Assembly (NCBI GenBank): GCA_038824665.1
Contig: JAWBBK010000001.1
Span: 32,001 to 96,000, forward strand
Length of the DNA stretch: 64,000 nucleotides
From: Acidilobaceae archaeon
GTDB taxonomy: Archaea > Thermoproteota > Thermoprotei_A > Sulfolobales > Acidilobaceae
Direction: 5' to 3'
A model generated the notes under the pieces. That model saw nothing but the letters and a program-made list of their open reading frames with translations. It searched no databases and had not been told where the DNA came from. This document shows positions 4,600-63,077 of this stretch, one piece after another (the first letter of the stretch is position 1; every line of letters begins with the position of its first letter). The position numbers and the translations under genes were made by a program.

Positions 4600-5452
4600 C
4601 GATTAGGGCAGTTCCACAAATCGCTAGAATCACCGCTAGAATTCTAAACGGTGATATGGTCTCTCCTAGAAGAGCCCAAGCCAAAAGAGAAGCTCCAGCA
4701 GGCTCTAGAAGAGGTGGAATTGAGGCTACCGTGAGACTCGTTATTCTAGCTAAAGCGTTTATTATTGTATGTCCCAATAACGTTGGGAAGATAACTAGAA
4801 GTAGGACCAGAGGGACTGTCTCAAGAGGAATGAAAACGTTTGAAAACAACACTGCCGAAAGCATTAACGCGACTAGACCTCCTATGAGGTATGCATAAAA
4901 CGTATACTCGAGAGCGCTCATAGAACCCCTTAACAACTTGCCGATAATGAGATAGCCCGCTACCCCAAGCATCGATATGAAAGCCAAGAGAGCGCCTCGA
5001 GGGTCTTCGGAGCCTCTGTCTAGAGTAATCGTCAGAGCCGTTATCGCAACAAGAGATACAGCGAGACCGAGATACTGACGAAACGCGATGTTAGTCTTGA
5101 AGATCACGTTGTCTGCTAAAACCATAACAACAGGATACGAGTTGACTATAGTGGCAGCTACGGCAACGCTGGTCATACTTAGACTGATATTCCATAAAGA
5201 CATGTGAAGTCCGAAAAGAAGTCCTCCAATAGCGGTGAGGATCAAAACAGAAGGCTTGAAGCTAATCTCAGAGCTGATCTTTAGAAATCTCAACAGAGCT
5301 AATGTGAGTAGAGAGGCCGTAAGCAGTCTCCACGCAGCTAAAGGAATAGGCTCAGCTCCGAGAGCTAGAGAGTACCTGATTAAGATAGAGGCTAAAGAAA
5401 AGCTAATTGAAGCCGTTGTAACGCCTGCTACTACAGTCACAAAGCGTTTCAA
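4571..5452 (-). CDS. DMT/EamA family transporter
   Basis: About 10 hydrophobic helices; duplicated EamA pattern (LLEPAGASLLAWALLGE). Confidence 0.85.
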   Translation of the reverse strand: MKRFVTVVAGVTTASISFSLASILIRYSLALGAEPIPLAAWRLLTASLLTLALLRFLKISSEISFKPSVLILTAIGGLLFGLHMSLWNISLSMTSVAVAATIVNSYPVVMVLADNVIFKTNIAFRQYLGLAVSLVAITALTITLDRGSEDPRGALLAFISMLGVAGYLIIGKLLRGSMSALEYTFYAYLIGGLVALMLSAVLFSNVFIPLETVPLVLLLVIFPTLLGHTIINALARITSLTVASIPPLLEPAGASLLAWALLGETISPFRILAVILAICGTALIVSVERKQEF

Positions 5453-5535
5453 AGCTTTCCCCTGGCTCTCGAAGTGCTCGTATCTAAAGCTTAAACTTTA
5501 GAATACAATACTTTATAAGGGATGGGGGGTATCTC

Positions 5536-6339
5536 GTGGACTGCTCGAAGCTCGCCTCTGAGCAACACCCAGACGTGGCAGTAGCTGTTCTAGCTGGTGG
5601 TGAAGGGAAGAGATTTAGACCCCTAACCTACTACATCTCCAAACCTCTCATACCTATAGGGTCCTCTGAGAGACCCGTCATCGATATCATTCTTGAGTGG
5701 ATAACTAAAAGCGGCGTGAAATACATAGTTCTACTCGTCGGGTATAAGTGGAGACAACTAGTAAACTATGTAGGAGACGGAACTCGCTATGGAGCTAAAG
5801 TTAAGTATGTAGTGGACAAACCTCCTTACTCAAATACTGGAGGGGCTCTAAGAAGAGCTGTAGAACTCGGACTCTTCAATGGCTATAGAGACGTTCTCGT
5901 CTGGTATGGAGACATAGTGGCCCCCATAGATATTCACGACTTAGTGAAAAAACATAGAGACTCAGAAGCTGACATCACCTTAGTGGTATCTAGGTCTTAT
6001 AGAGTTCCTGTAGGCGTGGTCAAGATAGGAGACGGCGGTATCGTGGTCGATATGAAAGAAAAGCCTTTGCTCGATCTAGAAGCAAACATAGGTGTCTTTA
6101 TAGTTAAACGTGAAAGCATAGAACGGATCTTGGCTGAAAGCAATTTGGGTTGCTCTTTCGATATCTCAGAAGACCTAATACCCTCTGCGATAAGAGCTAA
6201 ACTCAAAGTCAACGCTTATCTCTTTAATGGCGTTTGGTATGATGTGGGTAGCATAGAACGTTATGAAAAGATAGACCATGAAGACTTAGAGAGGCTAATG
6301 TGTATAGAGAAAGAGCCCCCGCCTTACGTCTACCTCTAG
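5536..6339 (+). CDS. Sugar-phosphate nucleotidyltransferase
   Basis: LAGGEGKRFRPLT...KPL, YGD, EKP, WYDVG. Confidence 0.9.
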   Translation: MDCSKLASEQHPDVAVAVLAGGEGKRFRPLTYYISKPLIPIGSSERPVIDIILEWITKSGVKYIVLLVGYKWRQLVNYVGDGTRYGAKVKYVVDKPPYSNTGGALRRAVELGLFNGYRDVLVWYGDIVAPIDIHDLVKKHRDSEADITLVVSRSYRVPVGVVKIGDGGIVVDMKEKPLLDLEANIGVFIVKRESIERILAESNLGCSFDISEDLIPSAIRAKLKVNAYLFNGVWYDVGSIERYEKIDHEDLERLMCIEKEPPPYVYL

Positions 6340-54508: not shown

Positions 54509-55609
54509 GTGATCCCTAAGCGTGCCTCTGATCAGCTAGAAGAGGCTCTAGCTCTAGCTGAGACTGCAGGATATAATATCTCTAGGATTTGGAAGACCCG
54601 ATACTCTTGGGGCGTAGGTAGAGGGCTTCTAAAAGAGATAAGTGAGAAAGCACGAGAAGAGAAGCCTCAGGCTATCATATTTTACGGAAACGTAAAGCCC
54701 TCTTCTTATTTCAAGCTGGCTAAAGAGACAAAAGCGAAGGTCTTGGATAGAGTTATGTTGATATTAGAGATCTTTTTAAAGCATGCTGGAAGCAAGGAAG
54801 CTTTGCTCCAAATAGAGATAGCCAGATTGAGACACGAACTTCCTCTAGTGAGAGAATTCGTCAGGAGGAAAAAGCTAGGAGAGCTACCGGGTTTTCTAGG
54901 ATCTGGAGGCTACGCTACCGATAGCTACTATAGACACCTCACGAACAGATTGGCTAAGCTAAGAGATGAGCTAGAAAAGCTCAGAGAAATTAGAAGACGT
55001 CATGCTCTCTCTAGGATAAGCCTAGGGTTACCTCACATAGCTATAGTAGGCTACGCTTCAGCAGGGAAAACCACGCTTTTCAATGCAATAACCGGAGAGA
55101 ATCAACCTACGGGCGAAGAGTACTTCACAACTCTTCATCCGAAACGCTCTTCAAGAGTGCTCAACGGCGCTAAGCTCGTGTTTGTAGATACGGTCGGTTT
55201 CATAAGAGATGTGCCTCCTGAGATCATTGAAGCTTTTCATTCAGTGTTAGAAGAAGTCAGACTTGCCGACTTGATCTTGTTTGTTGTAGACGTCTCTGAA
55301 GAGTCGAGAGTTCTCAAGGAGAAGCTAGAAGCAGGACTACAGGTGCTCTCTAGAATTGAAGCCATAGGGGTCCCTCTTGTTGTCGTTGCTAACAAGATAG
55401 ACAAGGTGTCTCTCGAAGACCTGAAGGTTAGAACGTTGGTCATAGAAGAGGTCTGTTTAAACAAGGGAGTAAACTGTAGGATCGTACAGGTCTCAGCGTT
55501 GAAAAAGATAGGTTTAGATGATCTCCTGAATACTGTGCTTGAGCTGTTAAACTCTAAGCTCAGCGAAAAGCAGAGTTCAAGAGGTCAGAGAGTTCTTGCA
55601 CCCAGCTGA
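54509..55609 (+). CDS. hflX: GTPase HflX (start may lie slightly upstream)
   Basis: [37 protein letters not shown]. Confidence 0.94.
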
Positions 55610-56144: not shown

Positions 56145-56707
56145 GCGGAAACTCAACGACAAATAGTCTCAAGCTTATTGAAGAGTTCGCCATGAGGATC
56201 TCTGAGAACAATGGAATAGACCCAGCTTTAGCTCTTAATGTCTTCAGGCTTATAGTAGTTCACAGCGAAAAAGGCGGTTTGAGCGATAACGAAATCGAAG
56301 AGCTAAGCGGACTAAGACAGATAGAAGTCCGTAAAGTCCTCAGAGTGCTTTATGAAGCAAGACTTATAGAGATGAAGAAAGAAAGAGACGCTAAGCAGGA
56401 CATTGTGAAGTACACTTGGTATATAGACAGCGACGTTCTCAACTTCAACCTGCTAAAAAGGAAGAAGCTCACACTAGAAAAGCTCAAAGAAAGATTAGGA
56501 AGCGAGAAGAAAAACGAATGGTATGAGTGTCCTAGCGAGGGAATCAGGTTCTCGCTTCATGAAGCTTTCGAAGTCGACTTTGTGTGTCCTCGTTGTGGCT
56601 CTCCTTTAGAGATGTCTAAAGGCGACTGTATTGAGAAGCTGTCCAAACACATAGCTGTTCTAGAAGAGGAGATAGCTGAAGATGAGAAGAACCTTTTCGC
56701 TAATTGA
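56141..56707 (+). CDS. tfe: Transcription factor E (TFE alpha)
   Basis: wHTH VRK.L..LYE; C....RFS..EAFE.DF.CPRCG. Confidence 0.9.
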
Positions 56708-57653
56708 TGTGTTTGGAGGTGGAGGAGGCTACAGCAGAGGTTTTGTAGAAGCAGGCTTCAAGGTTCTAGCTGCAATAGAGAACAACCCTCCTGTAGCTAA
56801 AACCTATAAAGCCAACTTTCCTGAAGCTTTGGTAATAGCTGAAGACGTAAAAGAGGTCGGTTATCCTCTTCTTAAAAGCCTTTTAGGCATTTCGCGAAGC
56901 GATGTAGAGGTCGTGATAGCGAGTCCGCCTTGTGAACCCTTTACAGAAGCCAATCCAAAAAGGATGAAAGACCCTCTCGACAGGCTTTACGTAGACCCCG
57001 CAGGACAACTCTTTTTGCATGCTATCAGAATAATAGGAGACCTACAACCTAAGGTCTTCGTTATAGAGAACGTGAGAGGGATCTTAGAGCCTCCTATAGC
57101 TAAGAGCATAAAGAGAGAACTCGAAAGAGCAGGCTATCCTCGAGTTTACTTCAACGTGTTGAAAGCAGAAGAACACGGCTGTCCTAGCGCGAGAACTAGA
57201 GTCTTCGTGTCCAACATAAAGATAGATCCTCCCAAGAAGCCAGGACCTTCAGTATGGGAGGTGCTCAAAGACTTGCCTCCACCAGGTTCTAGCTACCCTC
57301 CTAATCATGAGTATCCTCAAGAACTCTCTAAAAGAATGAAGGCTAGAGTTTCGAAGTTAAGATGGGGAGAGGCCTTGCTCTTCTTTGAAGGAGCCACTCG
57401 AAGACATCCTAACTACGTGAGGTTGGACCCAGAAAAGAGAGCTCCTACGGTTATGGGCTCTTCTAGATTCATTCACCCCTATGAGGATAGGTTGCTAACT
57501 GTGAGAGAGCAGGCGAGGCTTATGGGATTTCCTGACTACCATATCTTCTTGGGAAGCAAAGACCTGCAGTACGATATGGTTGGTGAAGCCGTTCCTCCGC
57601 CTTTAGCTAGAGCTATAGCCGAGTGTGTTATAAGAGTTCTATCGGAGAGCTAA
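56682..57653 (+). CDS. Orphan cytosine-C5 methyltransferase
   Basis: F.G.GG, SPPC, ENV, R.R, LTVREQARL.GFP, GEAVPP. Confidence 0.88.
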   Translation: MRRTFSLIDVFGGGGGYSRGFVEAGFKVLAAIENNPPVAKTYKANFPEALVIAEDVKEVGYPLLKSLLGISRSDVEVVIASPPCEPFTEANPKRMKDPLDRLYVDPAGQLFLHAIRIIGDLQPKVFVIENVRGILEPPIAKSIKRELERAGYPRVYFNVLKAEEHGCPSARTRVFVSNIKIDPPKKPGPSVWEVLKDLPPPGSSYPPNHEYPQELSKRMKARVSKLRWGEALLFFEGATRRHPNYVRLDPEKRAPTVMGSSRFIHPYEDRLLTVREQARLMGFPDYHIFLGSKDLQYDMVGEAVPPPLARAIAECVIRVLSES

Positions 57654-57739: not shown

Positions 57740-58474
57740 TTGCTCACAAGAGAAGAACTCGAGCGTTACGATAGACAGATCCGGCTTTTTGGAGTCGAAG
57801 CTCAGGAGAAGCTGAAGAGATCGCGTGCTCTGATAGTAGGGCTTGGAGGTCTCGGGTCTCCTACCGCTATATACCTAGCCGCAGCCGGTGTAGGCGAACT
57901 CCTCTTAGTAGACTTCGAGAAAGTGGAGTTAAGCAATCTCAATAGACAACTCCTTCACTGGACCAAAGACTTAGGAAGACTAAAGACCGAATCAGCAGCT
58001 GAAAAGCTAAAAGAGATCAACCCTCACGTATCCGTTGAGGTCTTTAACGTCAGAGCTGATGAAGAGCTACTCGACGAACTGATCAGGAGAGCAGACGTAG
58101 CTCTTGATTGTGTAGACAACTGGGAGACCAGGTTCGCTCTCAATAGAGTCGCAGTAAGACATGGAAAGCCTTTTGTTCATGCAGGAGTTAGAGGAATGTG
58201 GGGACAGCTTTTAGTAGTGGTTCCAGGAAAGACTCCTTGTTTGAACTGTTTGATCCCCTTGCCTCCTCGAGAGGAAGCTAAGCTTCCTATGTTAGGCACC
58301 ACTTCTGGAGTCATGGCTGCTCTTCAGGCAACTGAAGCCATCAAGTTGCTAACCGGTTATGGGAGACCTGCTTTAAACAAGCTCGTAGTCTACGATGGCT
58401 TTTCGACTGAGTTCTCAGAGATCCCTGTGGTCAGAAATCCCAAATGTCCTATTTGTGGCTCCGAGAAGCGTTAA
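57740..58474 (+). CDS. ThiF/MoeB/E1-like adenylyltransferase
   Basis: RYDRQ, GLGGLG, SNLNRQ, PCLNC, CPIC. Confidence 0.93.
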   Translation: MLTREELERYDRQIRLFGVEAQEKLKRSRALIVGLGGLGSPTAIYLAAAGVGELLLVDFEKVELSNLNRQLLHWTKDLGRLKTESAAEKLKEINPHVSVEVFNVRADEELLDELIRRADVALDCVDNWETRFALNRVAVRHGKPFVHAGVRGMWGQLLVVVPGKTPCLNCLIPLPPREEAKLPMLGTTSGVMAALQATEAIKLLTGYGRPALNKLVVYDGFSTEFSEIPVVRNPKCPICGSEKR

Positions 58475-58510
58475 GTCTTCTCAATCAAGTAGAGAGCGTT
58501 GGGTGGACTT

Positions 58511-58984
58511 ATGGAACTCTTCCCGCTATTACATAACGTCAGTAGCGTTCAGAGACTTGTAGACACAGCGAGACTTGTCTATGGGCTAGGTCTTAAAGTC
58601 TTTGTTGCCACCAAAGTCTATGGAGCAGCTGCTCAGTCAGGAGTTCCTGAGATCATGAAAATAGCTATGAAAAGCGGAGGTAGTTTCTTCGTTCTCCAAG
58701 ACCTTCCAGACGCTTTTGAAGTCCTCAGACCCGATGTGGTTCTTCTGGTAAGCCGTAGCTACGCTCGCGAAGTCCTAGACGTTTTTAACCCCCCGGTTTA
58801 TGAAGGTAGAGTTCTCGTGGTCTTCAATGGAGGAGACCCTGATTTCGCAGTCAACGAGATAGCTCATGGAAAGCCTGTGTACATAAAAGGAGCTGAAGGA
58901 AAGCTCGGTCCCGTCGCTGAAGCAGCATTAATTTTATACTGTCTCCTTCATCGCAGAGATCGGGGAGAGCACTCAGTTGTCTGA
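58511..58984 (+). CDS. DUF2122-like (SPOUT-like) protein
   Basis: LHNVSSVQRL, KVYGAAAQSGVPE, GPVAEAA. Confidence 0.7.
   Translation: MELFPLLHNVSSVQRLVDTARLVYGLGLKVFVATKVYGAAAQSGVPEIMKIAMKSGGSFFVLQDLPDAFEVLRPDVVLLVSRSYAREVLDVFNPPVYEGRVLVVFNGGDPDFAVNEIAHGKPVYIKGAEGKLGPVAEAALILYCLLHRRDRGEHSVV
58785..58800 (-). repeat. whiP-flanking motif copy A (TTAACCCCCCGGTTTA)
   Basis: Reverse complement of copy B; lies inside a CDS. Confidence 0.85.
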
Positions 58985-60155
58985 ACTTCGTGAGGAGACA
59001 GTCAGAAGCCTTCTGGCTCAGCTAAGACGTTACTCAAGCGCTGCCTTCGATCTAGCTGTGTACTCTCTGGCTTTCAATGATAGTGTGGCAGCTCTCGAAG
59101 TGCTCTTGATAGAAGACGTAGTAGACAGTCTCACTAAAAGACTAGCGGAAAAGACCTTTCAGGCGTTTAGGCTTGGCGGCTCAGCTCGTATGAGTCATGG
59201 AATAGCTGGAGTCGCCTCAGCTCTAGATAGCATAAGCGACGCTTCTGGAGACCTAGCGACAGCCGTTTTAAGAGGTTATCCTCCACATCCCTACATCACA
59301 GCTACGACCTGTATGGGCGAAGCTGTGTTCCCTCTAAGAAGCAGAAGAGAAGTCTCCTGGCCTTTTTCAGCTGTTGTTGATGTGCTTCTCATAAAGAGAG
59401 GCGAGAAGTATCTCCTAGCTCCTGAAGTCTCTAGAGTAATGGAAGGCGACCTGTTAGTCGTCAGAGGGCCTATAGACGAGATAGAACAGCTTTCGAAAGA
59501 ATTGGGAGAACCTATAAATGTAGAGAAGTGTTCTCAAGAAGTAGCCCTTCTCTCTCGTGCTGGCGACAGACTTGCTGAAAGCGTAAGAAGCTTAAAGCTC
59601 TCTCTAGATGCCATGTTGGATATGGCCTTCTACGCTCTCATAGACGACGATATGGAGATAGCCTCTAGCGTTGTAGAACTCGAAGACCATGTAGACAAGC
59701 TCTACTACGAAGCTCTCGAAGGCATAGCTGAACACTCTTACTCATCTCCATCGAGAGAGGTCATCAGTCTGATAGTGTTTATCAAAAGCTTAGAAGAGAT
59801 AGGAGACGCTGCTCACAGACTAGCGCAAGTCGTTTTGAAGAGAGAAGTGTCTGAAGTGCTTGGAGAGGCTGTCGAGATGGGTGAAGAGGTCTATCTCAAA
59901 GTAGCGTACCCTAAGAGAGACCCTATAGAGCTCAGCAGACTAGACCTTGAAGACTTGGGCTTCGTTGTAGTAGCCGTCTATAAGAGGTCAGAAGACGATT
60001 GGATAGTCCCTCCGCGTTCCTCTATGAAATTAGAAGAAGGAGACCTTTTGCTATTAAAGTACTACAAAACTGAAGCCAGTGCAGAAAGACATCTCTTAAA
60101 GCGTTTAGAGGCTATGGGGTTACGTCCTTTAACCAAAACTCCGTCTCGTTCTTAG
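58977..60155 (+). CDS. PhoU/TrkA-C domain protein
   Basis: Two PhoU-like helical domains (DLA.Y...D; LE.IGDAA) alternating with TrkA-C domains. Confidence 0.8.
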   Translation: MSELREETVRSLLAQLRRYSSAAFDLAVYSLAFNDSVAALEVLLIEDVVDSLTKRLAEKTFQAFRLGGSARMSHGIAGVASALDSISDASGDLATAVLRGYPPHPYITATTCMGEAVFPLRSRREVSWPFSAVVDVLLIKRGEKYLLAPEVSRVMEGDLLVVRGPIDEIEQLSKELGEPINVEKCSQEVALLSRAGDRLAESVRSLKLSLDAMLDMAFYALIDDDMEIASSVVELEDHVDKLYYEALEGIAEHSYSSPSREVISLIVFIKSLEEIGDAAHRLAQVVLKREVSEVLGEAVEMGEEVYLKVAYPKRDPIELSRLDLEDLGFVVVAVYKRSEDDWIVPPRSSMKLEEGDLLLLKYYKTEASAERHLLKRLEAMGLRPLTKTPSRS

Positions 60156-60158
60156 CCT

Positions 60159-60177
60159 TAAACCGGGGGGTTAACGG
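60159..60177 (+). repeat. whiP-flanking motif copy B (TAAACCGGGGGGTTAACGG)
   Basis: 17-bp perfect inverted repeat with copy C. Confidence 0.9.
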
Positions 60178-60239
60178 TTAACTAGAGTAAGACCGGGGCT
60201 CTCCTAGCATAGATTCGATTAAGACATACTCTTTGGGCG

Positions 60240-61013
60240 GTGGCTCTGAGCACTGGAGAAAGAAAAGAGCGGTTCGCTGAAAGGACTACGGAAAGTCAAC
60301 AACACGAAAGAGCTGGACCGCGTAGCAGAATAGTAGATTCAATTTTCTTACTGCTTCTCTCTAGACCTATGAGGTCAGCTGAGATAGCTGAAGCTTTAGG
60401 GTTTAGCTCTAGATACGTCTCGAGCTATCTCTCTTATTGGAGAGCTAGAGGTTACGTAGAGTATAGCTCAGGGTTTTGGTATCTCACAGCTAAAGGAGAA
60501 GAGTACGCTAGGTCTGTGTATTTCAGAGAGTCGAAGAAGAGCTCTTCCGATGAGTACGTGCTTTTGGCTCAGAGAATCCTCTCGTCTAACGTAAAGCTGG
60601 CAATAAAAGACAAAGCTCAAACTCTTCGGTCTGGCTCTTCTGAACGACTTTTGCCGTTCACTGTCGAGCTAACGGAAAAAGCTGGCAATAAACTACAAGA
60701 TAGAGTTTCGACAGCTACATGTGTTCTTTCCAAACTGAAGAACCTTGTCAGTGATGACGAACTCGACGTCTTGGCTCATTTAGCTACTCACTATGCGAGA
60801 TGGGGAACCACATATATGTATCTTGATCAAATACAGGAGAGACTTGAAGCCGACTACTCTTGGCTTATGAGAGTTTTGAGGACTCTACAGAGCAAAGGAC
60901 TTCTTTATATATACACTGACCCTCGACTTGGGGTAAGAGTCGGCTTCTCGAAGAACTTGAAAGAGCTTTTAGAAAGATGTTCTAATGAAGGTCTAGAGTC
61001 GGCGAGGTCGTAA
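60240..61013 (+). CDS. whiP: Winged-helix replication initiator WhiP
   Basis: GPRS..V..I..LL.SRPM...EIA..LG....YVSSYLSYW...G.V....G.WYLT..GE; second wHTH with TY.Y.DQ. Confidence 0.8.
   Translation: MALSTGERKERFAERTTESQQHERAGPRSRIVDSIFLLLLSRPMRSAEIAEALGFSSRYVSSYLSYWRARGYVEYSSGFWYLTAKGEEYARSVYFRESKKSSSDEYVLLAQRILSSNVKLAIKDKAQTLRSGSSERLLPFTVELTEKAGNKLQDRVSTATCVLSKLKNLVSDDELDVLAHLATHYARWGTTYMYLDQIQERLEADYSWLMRVLRTLQSKGLLYIYTDPRLGVRVGFSKNLKELLERCSNEGLESARS
60593..60692 (+). repeat. 15-bp direct repeat AAAGCTGGCAATAAA x2 inside whiP, in different codon phases
   Basis: Copies at 60593-60607 and 60678-60692, offset 85 nt. Confidence 0.88.
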
Positions 61014-61192
61014 ATTATAAACTACTACCACTTAGCTCGAGTTAGCTCAAGTTCTGTTGAAGTTTGACTATCATAATGAAAAAGTTTGTATAATTGTGTT
61101 TTAGCGCCTATAGTACTACTAAGCCAGAAAGAAGAGACCCAGAGGTGGTAGTTTTAGAAGCACAGAGGTCTAGAAAGCCGTTAACCCCCCGG
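61014..61192. other. Putative WhiP-associated replication origin / AT-rich unwinding element
   Basis: AT-rich 180-bp gap between convergent genes next to whiP, bounded by motif copy C. Confidence 0.55.
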
Positions 61193-61200
61193 TTAAAGAC
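61178..61200 (-). repeat. whiP-flanking motif copy C (CCGTTAACCCCCCGGTTAAAGAC)
   Basis: 21-bp perfect inverted repeat with copy D; 17-bp with copy B. Confidence 0.9.
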
Positions 61201-61804
61201 ATAGCTCGAATACTGACACAAGCGCGTTGTAGGCTTTATCGAGTTCTCTGTTGTTCACTATAGCTACAAACATTAAGTCGCCTTCTGTGAAACATTTAGA
61301 GACTTTTCCGCCTATCTCGCTTTCAAGTTCAGGAGGAGAGCCAGGCATTAGAAATCTATCTCGAGCCCAGCTACCCACTATAGCTTTAGAACAACCTGCT
61401 GCGATGAAGAGGTCTCTAAAAGCCATAGCCTCTACGTCTTTAACCGGGGGGTTAACACAGGAAACAGCTATCGCTACAGCTTGTTCCCATGACTTGAAGC
61501 CCAGACTTGTCTCACAGACTCTTACCTTAGAGTTCAACCACTTGAGGAGCTCTTCTCCTTTCTCTGTGAGAACAGCTCCTCCTCTGCTTCTCATGATCAG
61601 CCCTCTTTCCTTCAATCTGGCTAAAAGGGTTTTCACAGAAGAGTCGCTAAGACCAAGCCTATAGGATATAGAGGGTCTACCCAAAGGCTCCTTTTTCAAC
61701 TCTTTGAGGAGAGCGTGGACATGATAGAGAGTGAAGGCAGGTCTGCCTCCTCTTTCAGGTTCTGTGAGACCTTTGAGGAGCTCAAGCAAGAGCCTGTTGC
61801 CCAT
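61193..61804 (-). CDS. wHTH protein (DUF4443/DUF2111-like)
   Basis: GG.PAF..YH, P.GR..IS..LGL...SVKTLL.RL...GL...G..LT.KG. Confidence 0.78.
   Translation of the reverse strand: MGNRLLLELLKGLTEPERGGRPAFTLYHVHALLKELKKEPLGRPSISYRLGLSDSSVKTLLARLKERGLIMRSRGGAVLTEKGEELLKWLNSKVRVCETSLGFKSWEQAVAIAVSCVNPPVKDVEAMAFRDLFIAAGCSKAIVGSWARDRFLMPGSPPELESEIGGKVSKCFTEGDLMFVAIVNNRELDKAYNALVSVFELCL
61436..61456 (+). repeat. whiP-flanking motif copy D (GTCTTTAACCGGGGGGTTAAC)
   Basis: Inside CDS; inverted relative to copy C. Confidence 0.9.
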
Positions 61805-61853
61805 TCATAGAGATAAGGCTAGTTGAGCTAATAAACGAGCTGGGGCTCAGCTA

Positions 61854-62141
61854 GTGAACTCTAGACGCGAGAGAGCGCTTAAGATAAAGAGGAAGCTTTA
61901 CGAGAAGCTCAGGAGTTCTTGCGACCTAAAAGAAGTAGTTGAATGGGCTTGGGAGGACTTCGGAGCCAGAGTGAAAAACTGGGACGACATCGAGAAGCTC
62001 GTAACCAGTAGCGAGGTCACTATAGGAGACATCGTAGCGTTTCTCTCAGAGCTCGGCATAGAGGTCACAGAAGAAGATTTAGACTTAACGGAGGAAGACC
62101 TAAGAGACGCTCTGAAAGCTTCTGAGGAAACAGGGAGGTAA
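61854..62141 (+). CDS. Hypothetical acidic protein
   Basis: Coding-like ORF in operon with argF. Confidence 0.7.
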   Translation: MNSRRERALKIKRKLYEKLRSSCDLKEVVEWAWEDFGARVKNWDDIEKLVTSSEVTIGDIVAFLSELGIEVTEEDLDLTEEDLRDALKASEETGR

Positions 62142-62144
62142 ACG

Positions 62145-63077
62145 GTGCTTAGAGGCAGACACCTTTTAGACCTAATAGACTATGAGCCAAAGGAGATCGA
62201 GGAGATCATAAAGAAAGGGCTTGAGTTCAAAGAAGCTTATCGTAGAGGTCAGAGAAGAGTTGAACTTCTTCAAGGAAGAACTATAGCTCTTCTTTTCGAG
62301 AAGCCCAGCACGAGGACTAGAGTGAGTTTAGAGGTTGCAGCCTATCAGCTTGGAGCTAAAACTCTCTATTTGAGGTGGGATGAGCTCCAGCTAGCGAGAG
62401 GAGAAACTCTAGCTGATACAGCTAGAACGCTCTCAAGATATGTAGACGGCATAGTGGCTAGAGTTAAGAGCCATAAGACGTTAGTAGAGCTAGCTAGACA
62501 CTCTACAGTCCCCGTGATCAACGGGTTGAGCGACCTCAGTCATCCGCTTCAAGCTCTAGGAGACATGATGACGATATTGGAGAAGAAAGGTAGACTCAAA
62601 AACGTGAAGCTCGTCTTCGTGGGAGACGGCTCTGACAACGTGCTGAACAGCCTGATAGTAGTTGGAGCTAAGCTAGGTCTTCATATAATCATTTCGTCAC
62701 CTCCTCAACTAAAGCCTGACCCCAATGCCTTGAGCGCAGCTCTAAGAGAAGCAGAGAGAACTGGAGCGACCATAGAGTTTGTAGAAGAGCCGAGAGAAGC
62801 AGTCAGAGGAGCTGATGTTGTTTACACAGACGTCTGGGTAAGCATGGGACAAGACGAGACGGCTGAGCTCAAAAGAAGCCTCTTGAGACCTTATCAAGTC
62901 AACGCGAAGCTTATGGAACTAGCTGGAAGTCAAGCTATCTTCATGCATTGTCTTCCAGCTAGAAGAGGTGAGGAGGTCACAGACGAAGTGATCGACGGTC
63001 CTCAAAGCGTAGTATGGGACCAAGCTGAGAACAGACTACACATCCAGAAAGCGGTCTTCTCTCTCCTGATACCTTGA
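62145..63077 (+). CDS. argF: Ornithine carbamoyltransferase
   Basis: [32 protein letters not shown]. Confidence 0.97.

Follow-up and report, generated by a model that had tools for sequence, protein, structure and literature searches.

A spaced palindrome at the outer edge of two types of replication origin in Acidilobaceae, a putative protein-binding site

The stretch of 64,000 nucleotides analysed here, which we call the window, comes from an Acidilobaceae archaeon (GCA_038824665.1, contig JAWBBK010000001.1, positions 32,001 to 96,000). It carries the replication initiator gene whiP, an AT-rich gap behind it, and four copies (A to D) of a short spaced palindrome, which is the subject of this work. 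The 14-mer AACCGGGGGGTTAA occurs exactly at 58785-58798 (-), 60161-60174 (+), 61181-61194 (-) and 61442-61455 (+). A search of the window allowing up to two mismatches returned four matches in total, each of them exact; the expectation from shuffled sequence was 0.11, and none of 100 shuffles gave four or more. The first-pass annotation had reported the four copies and had seen the 14-mer nowhere else in the window, and on both points it was correct. The starts it gave for B (60159) and D (61440) are right for the 16-mers and two bases off for the 14-mer. The full site spans about 20 bp and reads TGTTAACC-GGGG-GGTTAACA. Copies B and C form an inverted repeat of 41 nt at 78% identity with a perfect 17-nt core, and the one made by C and D has 25 nt at 96% identity, with a perfect 21-nt core, in agreement with the lengths of 17 and 21 bp first noted. 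Two of the copies lie inside coding sequences, as the annotation had stated: A in a gene of family DUF2122, and D in a gene for a winged helix-turn-helix (wHTH) protein with a DUF4443 domain. Copy B is followed by an extra GGTTAAC half-site. The coordinates of all features are collected in Table 1.

Table 1. Genes, predicted origin and palindrome copies at the whiP locus of the window.
Feature	Position	Strand	Remarks
DUF2122 gene	58499..58984	+	Pfam PF09895, E 3e-34; contains copy A
Copy A (TAAACCGGGGGGTTAA)	58785..58800	-	inside DUF2122 gene; coding strand reads F-N-P-P-V
PhoU + TrkA_C domain gene	58977..60155	+	Pfam; left neighbour of the whiP cassette
Copy B	60159..60174	+	6 bp past the PhoU/TrkA_C stop; 66 bp upstream of the whiP start
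whiP	60240..61013	+	two winged-helix domains; Pfam wHTH at residues 36-93 and 171-227
WhiP-type origin gap (predicted)	61014..61180 (167 bp)		38% G+C against 46% in the window
Copy C	61181..61196	-	28 bp outside the distal TAC repeat; first bases overlap the wHTH-DUF4443 stop codon
wHTH-DUF4443 gene	61193..61804	-	Pfam; contains copy D; PH0730-like
Copy D	61440..61455	+	inside wHTH-DUF4443 gene; V-N-P-P-V, residues 117-121

The gene enclosed by B and C is indeed whiP, since NCBI names its homologues 'replication initiator protein WhiP'; homologues of that name are found in Acidilobaceae, Stetteria, Caldisphaera, Aeropyrum, Acidilobus and Pyrodictium. The gap behind the gene carries ACTACCAC at 61024-61031 (+) and 61145-61152 (-), flanking the motif ucm (TTATACAAAC) at 61084-61093 (-). 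The Ori-Finder-Arch preprint (bioRxiv 10.64898/2026.08.15.744077) gives the layout of WhiP-type origins as inverted repeat(+)/ucm/inverted repeat(-), with TACTACTACTAC as the inverted repeat and TTATACAAAC as ucm. The gap matches this layout and is therefore, by its sequence, a bona fide WhiP-type origin, and the palindrome is an element separate from it. The same layout is likewise found in the whiP loci of relatives. B and C together bracket the initiator gene plus the origin, and the TAC repeats of the gap lie inside the B-C pair. At Sulfolobus oriC1, ucm is essential and is bound by UBP (PMC12141716). The exact 10-mer of ucm has four occurrences on both strands of the 1.1 Mb assembly, two of which are the centres of two predicted origins. 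A 21-nt direct repeat (AAAGCTGGCAATAAA...) stands inside the whiP open reading frame (ORF) at 60593-60613 and 60678-60698, 90% identical and 85 bp apart; Sulfolobus WhiP is reported to bind repeats within its own ORF (Samson et al. 2013, PMC3607249).

We then counted the palindrome over the whole genome (G000), whose assembly of 10 contigs holds 1,100,729 bases at 83% completeness and contains the window as C1:32001-96000. Exact copies of AACCGGGGGGTTAA were confined to the four of the window, and six more copies carried one mismatch, so that uniqueness to the window fails genome-wide once one or two mismatches are allowed. A reversed-pattern control gave no match in the whole genome. The 16-mer at up to two mismatches marked 11 sites, seven of which lie at two predicted origins, the one behind whiP and a second one on contig C3. 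On C3, three near-copies with one or two mismatches (53526 (+), 54616 (-) and 55368 (-)) stand within 1.9 kb and surround an intergenic region with two clear origin recognition boxes (ORBs; TCCAGAGGAAACAGAGGGGTC and TCCACAGGAAGCAGGGGGGTC), a weaker inverted ORB, and ucm between them. The middle copy, at 54616, begins at the base directly after an ORB, with a gap of 0 bp. The predicted Orc1-type origin itself lies outside the window at C3:54317-54631 (about 5290-5640 of locus L009), in the order ORB(+), weak ORB(-), ucm, ORB(+). It is located between rpiA and the TiaS gene and not beside an orc gene; the two Orc1/Cdc6 genes of the genome are at C1 ~197.7-199.2 kb and 397.3-398.6 kb.

The association with both types of origin was also seen in relatives within the host family (probably Acidilobaceae). 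WhiP was detected in 37 of the 41 family genomes that were sampled, and the counts for whiP loci cover 30 loci. Of 18 other family genomes, 17 contained the 16-mer at up to two mismatches, at 2-39 matches per genome against 0-2 for the reversed control. Around whiP, a copy lies within 300 bp upstream of the gene in 19/30 loci, at 51-166 bp before it, and a copy within 350 bp past the stop, just outside the origin repeats, in 18/30. Both flanking copies are present in 14 loci and are mutually inverted in 12 of these. The tie of the motif to the whiP origin, proposed from the window, is thus conserved in the whiP neighbourhoods of the family. For the other type of origin, an ORB pattern (TCCANAGGAANCNGNGGGGTC) was written from the C3 locus; it matches 27 of the 41 genomes at one locus each, with a control of about zero. 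At 19 of these 27 ORB loci, 0-3 bp separate the site from the outermost ORB at its G-rich end; the two point the same way in 15 of the loci and opposite ways in four, including that of G000. One further ORB locus has a variant with four mismatches abutting the ORB, and genome G017, missed by the ORB pattern, also has a site abutting an ORB. Genus g9 is without the G-run form and carries arm-only palindromes at the same place (e.g. GTAAACC-AAT-GGTTTAC). In two whiP loci of this genus (L052 and L069), another inverted repeat, GAGGGACCCC..., is found on both sides of whiP.

Beyond the host family, the site abuts an ORB in two other families of the order, f6 (L154) and f11 (L163, L164). The f6 genome has WhiP, and four of its five sites lie at its two origins. 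The two f11 genomes, G060 and G079, are 98% and 99% complete. Each contains exactly two sites, of which one adjoins an ORB and the second stands no more than 4 kb away, and neither genome gave a match to our 12-sequence WhiP profile, a negative limited to this query. The presence of the site at an ORB origin where WhiP was not detected is our main argument that the site is general to origins and not specific to WhiP. A third family, f10 (L156, L157, L161), carries GGAACC-AAW-GGTTTC against the outer ORB instead of the G-run form. The suggestion of the first-pass annotation that these are WhiP sites is therefore not supported in that form: the site also occurs at the ORB origin of G000, at 19/27 ORBs of relatives, and in the two f11 genomes.

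The anatomy of the site was examined with 163 unique sites from all loci. Symmetry extends beyond the search pattern to TG...CA, with nothing further conserved; the flank frequencies are G 73% and T 61% on one side and C 75% and A 61% on the other. Arms of 8 bp enclose a spacer of 4 bp. When only the arms were prescribed in the search, GGGG was still recovered as the spacer in 23/25 sites of G017, which indicates that the asymmetric core itself is specified. Symmetric variation (C/T and G/A) is seen at positions 6 and 11. Eight of 15 sites in genus g14 read TATACC in the arm on the 5' side of the G-run, a change never found in the opposite arm; such one-arm variation suggests an asymmetric reader. 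As single strands the copies fold weakly, with -1.6 to -3.7 kcal/mol as DNA at 37 C and z-scores from -2.7 to +0.25. The weak hairpins, the lack of an Rfam match at E up to 0.1, and the occurrence of the site in both orientations relative to genes led us to reject a structured RNA or intrinsic terminator, and the first two favour a protein site on duplex DNA. A mobile palindrome of the REP (repetitive extragenic palindrome) or MITE (miniature inverted-repeat transposable element) type was also rejected: there is no similarity past 20 bp and no Y1_Tnp, and positions are kept across genera.

Along the chromosome, the sites are concentrated near origins to different degrees. Of the 13 sites in G001, eight are at most 5 kb from one of the two origins. 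G017, a single contig of 1.55 Mb, has 31 sites; four of them are no further than 2.5 kb from an origin, and nine fall within 12 kb of its two origins, where about one is expected. By our own ORF calling, 23 of the 31 are intergenic and eight are in ORFs, and 12 of the 23 intergenic sites fall within 51 bp past a stop codon, in both orientations. Five sites of G000 (B, C, C3:53526, C3:54616 and C5:89422) are likewise all within about 10 bp of a stop codon. Site polarity around the origins of G017 showed no clean switch by eye. A coherent regulon was rejected, the genes beside the 31 sites of G017 being unrelated in function. Two further arrangements in G017 may be mentioned. At C1:1498825 (+) and 1499563 (-), an inverted pair of sites brackets one single metallo-beta-lactamase-fold gene, as B and C bracket whiP. 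The gene of a C-5 cytosine DNA methyltransferase has a copy 6 bp past its stop; CCGG and two GTTAAC hexamers are part of the site sequence. Such methyltransferase genes are found a few kb from whiP in both genomes (56682-57653 in the window; L126:16133-17101 in G017).

Copies inside genes read (V/F)-N-P-P-V or P-L-T-G-E-L in the protein. Among 28 aligned wHTH-DUF4443 homologues, eight, from several genera, keep the 16-mer of copy D at the same codon between differing flanking codons; PP(R/K)D takes its place in most of the remaining 20. An equivalent of copy A is found at the same DUF2122 codon in 9 of 30 family loci, including that of G017, whose DUF2122 gene sits 41 kb from whiP; in the other 21 the protein stretch varies. 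The retention of these copies while the surrounding protein varies suggests selection on the DNA.

The whiP loci were also compared within genera. In genus g13, genomes G013 and G044 have collinear flanks around a cassette of about 1 kb, whiP plus origin, which is inverted between them; on either side the homology breaks off at the motif. In genus g15, G015 and G037 are mutually collinear. Both differ from G046 by an inversion of the whiP-origin cassette between collinear flanks; motif copies enclose the inverted segment here, and the breakpoints fall in intervals of about 565 and 862 bases. Inversions with breakpoints at or next to B- and C-type copies have thus occurred at least twice in evolution. 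The two sites of G013 are in direct core orientation, and the orientation of the 4-bp core can differ at the same flank, which would be the product expected from exchange between the two arms of one site. Across the family, 29/30 loci have the wHTH-DUF4443 gene no more than 1.5 kb from whiP; in 14 of them it is found on the origin side, in the other 15 on the 5' side. At the ORB origin, no inversion was found in 11 within-genus comparisons. The assumed excision of whiP plus origin as a circle (B x D) found no evidence. Excision and inversion junctions were searched in Logan contigs of four hot-spring metagenome runs from three studies, and none was found, although contigs hide rare forms; one contig, which may come from the source of this DNA, spans 58000-62500 in the reference arrangement.

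The conservation of the palindrome marks it as functional. Taken together, we consider it rather probable that this 20-bp palindrome is a duplex protein-binding site and a conserved outer component of origins, in the family and in at least two neighbouring ones. An accessory sequence-specific protein would then sit right beside the initiator, where it would mark or limit the origin, and two mechanistically different origins would come under one common factor. Copies A and D would be extra copies kept by selection inside neighbouring genes, and the mutually inverted near-palindromes would also have served as breakpoints for the evolutionary inversions of the whiP-origin cassette. We infer this binding, the candidates for the binder and any effect on origin firing from the sequences and positions described above. 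Several observations weigh against the proposal. The genomes compared are kin, so that counts of loci and genomes are not independent events. A copy at up to three mismatches is absent from 8/27 ORB loci, from the upstream side of 11/30 whiP loci and from the downstream side of 12/30. Most sites of G017 are distant from origins and beside unrelated genes, which means that the factor may be a general one. Upstream of the two orc genes of G000, no copy was found within 400 bp even at five mismatches, and Orc autoregulation through the site was rejected on this ground. Finally, in g9 and f10 the palindrome abutting the ORB has AACC/GGTT arms and an A/T spacer without the G-run, which weakens any argument built on an ORB-like G-run.

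Such an argument underlies our best guess at the binder, an Orc1/Cdc6 paralogue, which we offer tentatively. The left two thirds of the site, GTTAAC-CGG-GGGGT, mimics the 3' half of the ORB, GGAAAC-NGR-GGGGT, and the Ori-Finder-Arch preprint describes the G-run half of the ORB as being read by the initiator-specific motif of the AAA+ domain. Two Orc1/Cdc6 genes were found in all 11 genomes tested that carry the site. Loss of an Orc paralogue in g9, which is without the G-run form, was not seen (2, 2 and 1 matches in three g9 genomes). The wHTH-DUF4443 protein, which the first-pass annotation had named among the proteins to be tested for binding, is a possible candidate that we do not favour; it seems to be a widespread small regulator. 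Its predicted structure (pLDDT 95.3) has a CggR/MarR-like winged helix, and its best PDB match is 2P8T (E 3.9e-9, 30% identity), the uncharacterised PH0730 of Pyrococcus; with such a relative in Pyrococcus, it was rejected as a lineage-specific binder. The Pfam DUF4443 model is too insensitive to score presence or absence, since the window's own protein falls below the cut-off. The wHTH-DUF4443 gene shares a conserved cluster with the genes of aspartate/ornithine carbamoyltransferase and of a 95-aa protein.

Other explanations have to be weighed against this accessory-site reading. If the sites were WhiP operators, WhiP would bind them to control its own gene and origin. The copies upstream of whiP in 19/30 loci would fit, two tandem winged helices could read an asymmetric site with two arms, and in vitro binding of Sulfolobus WhiP to all three origins has been reported (PMC3607249). 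The described WhiP repeats, TACTACTAC, and the repeat in the whiP ORF are different sequences, separately present here, and the two nearly complete f11 genomes have an ORB-abutting site and no match to the WhiP profile; on the latter evidence WhiP alone is an unlikely binder, and we regard the operator explanation as very improbable. Centromere-like sites comparable to parS, where a spreading or bridging protein would load at origin-proximal copies to segregate or fold the chromosome, would agree with a near-palindrome of 16-20 bp that is present in few copies per genome and clusters at origins, as in G001 and G017. In-gene copies would be tolerated there too, including the one inside the gene of a DNA-binding protein, and bacterial parS itself occurs inside spo0J. 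The order is moreover reported to be without SMC proteins (PMC10769869). Against this, ParB_N (PF02195) gave no match in the 83%-complete G000, a search that did not extend to an archaeal SegB-type protein; there is no partition ATPase gene beside the sites of the window, and two f11 genomes make do with two sites each. The exact contact with the ORB at 0-3 bp would also be unexpected for a centromere, and we think this explanation unlikely. Similarly doubtful is the site of a general regulator, nucleoid protein or transcription roadblock that would play no specific part in replication, and whose proximity to origins would follow only from intergenic placement. It could account for the sites behind the stop codons of unrelated genes in G017, in both orientations, and in G000. 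Against it stand the concentration at origins in genomes with few sites (7/11, 8/13, 4/5, 2/2 and 2/2), a register with the ORB that is fixed across genera, and the maintenance of copies in coding sequences, where a roadblock would harm the gene.

The first-pass annotation had further proposed tyrosine-recombinase sites. In this case a recombinase would flip the whiP-origin cassette (B x C) or excise it (B x D) as a regulated switch, and the two orientations seen between species would be frozen switch states of an initiator-gene-plus-origin cassette. If true, Acidilobaceae would carry an invertible replication-origin module, with the sites at the ORB origin and elsewhere as further substrates. 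Part of the proposal is supported: inversion of the B x C type did take place in evolution, in g13 and g15, the cassette faces its conserved neighbour either way at nearly equal frequency, and the flanking pairs are mostly mutually inverted around an asymmetric core. Other findings speak against a dedicated switch. The one tyrosine recombinase of the 83%-complete G000 lies about 59 kb from the locus, and no serine recombinase or resolvase and no Y1 transposase was found in this assembly. The core sites of lox, FRT and dif have arms of 11-13 bp around a spacer of 6-8 bp (13-8-13, 11-6-11), and 8-bp arms around a 4-bp spacer are unlike them. The best-conserved position of the palindrome is flush against the ORB, where no inversion was seen, the direct core orientation in G013 is not expected from conservative recombination, and the contigs of the four runs held no junctions, with the reservation on rare forms made above. 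Short inverted palindromes can also give rise to rare inversions in the absence of a dedicated enzyme. We therefore regard a dedicated switch as quite improbable. The sole integrase-family gene of the assembly, probably XerA-like, is at about 999-1454 of the window (C1:32999-33454).

Archaeal origins described so far consist of initiator sites, either ORBs or WhiP repeats, around an unwinding element with ucm. The palindrome would add a further, outer element, present also in genera with cultured members. Which protein adjoins the initiator, and whether it couples or limits the firing of origins that use different initiators, are the questions raised; the site is long and specific enough for affinity purification of the kind that found UBP. 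It would also sharpen the computational prediction of origins in this lineage. In addition, a documented pair of short palindromes that marks the breakpoints of repeated initiator-origin inversions bears on the view of whiP origins as captured, movable modules. We found no description of the palindrome in the searchable literature, and an earlier description of it in work on A. pernix origins (Grainge et al. 2006; Robinson and Bell 2007) is possible; the element at the outer edge of both origin types seems undescribed.

Among known systems, the ORB is the closest comparison. The palindrome resembles it in its location at origins, its polar G-run and the same dyad-to-G spacing, with 12/15 positions matching the ORB of L090, and it stands in fixed register beside a true ORB. 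It is not a canonical ORB, as the first-pass annotation had recognised: GTTAAC replaces the dyad TCCA-N-TGGAAA, and the ORB pattern matches separate positions at the same loci. The winged helix of Orc1-1 reads the dyad element of the ORB, whereas the palindrome has no TCCANAGG dyad half and possesses a mirrored second arm. By contrast with ORBs, it also occurs at WhiP-type origins, in genes and at dispersed intergenic places.

In the invertible systems Hin/hix and Fim, inverted copies with an asymmetric centre bound a segment found in both orientations. Compared with these and with lox, FRT and dif, the palindrome locus is without a recombinase gene, the spacer has 4 bp, and both states are seen only between species. 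A different kind of parallel is offered by B3/Abf1 of yeast ARS1 and by IHF and Fis at E. coli oriC, accessory sites at the edge of an origin whose factors have many other genomic sites; this likeness is by analogy only, as the proteins and the domain of life are unrelated to those of the palindrome. The comparison with IHF and Fis has been made for ucm and UBP (PMC12141716). Identity with ucm was rejected, since TTATACAAAC differs in sequence and is separately present at the centre of both origins. Like ucm, the palindrome is a short motif common to all origins of a genome, whatever their initiator, and occurs elsewhere in the genome as well, but ucm lies in the middle of the duplex unwinding element and the palindrome at the outer edge. 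UBP, which is not an initiator, is described as a monomer that binds about 11-12 bp (Dhanaraju et al. 2025, PMC12141716), against 20 bp and two arms here. Identity with the WhiP repeats was also rejected, the TACTACTAC-type repeats at the gap edges being different from the palindrome. The WhiP-type inverted repeats (Ori-Finder-Arch; PMC3607249) share its locus, its gene neighbour and its arrangement as an inverted pair around the unwinding region; they differ in their TAC-triplet sequence and in lying inside the B-C pair. In placement, parallels are found in Sulfolobus, where the 'C3' site of Orc1-3, which is described as Sulfolobales-specific (PMC10769869), lies beside a mini-ORB at oriC2, and 'C2/C3' palindromes are found at oriC1 (PMC3718332); the likeness, one of placement, is that there too the site of a second protein adjoins that of Orc1-1.

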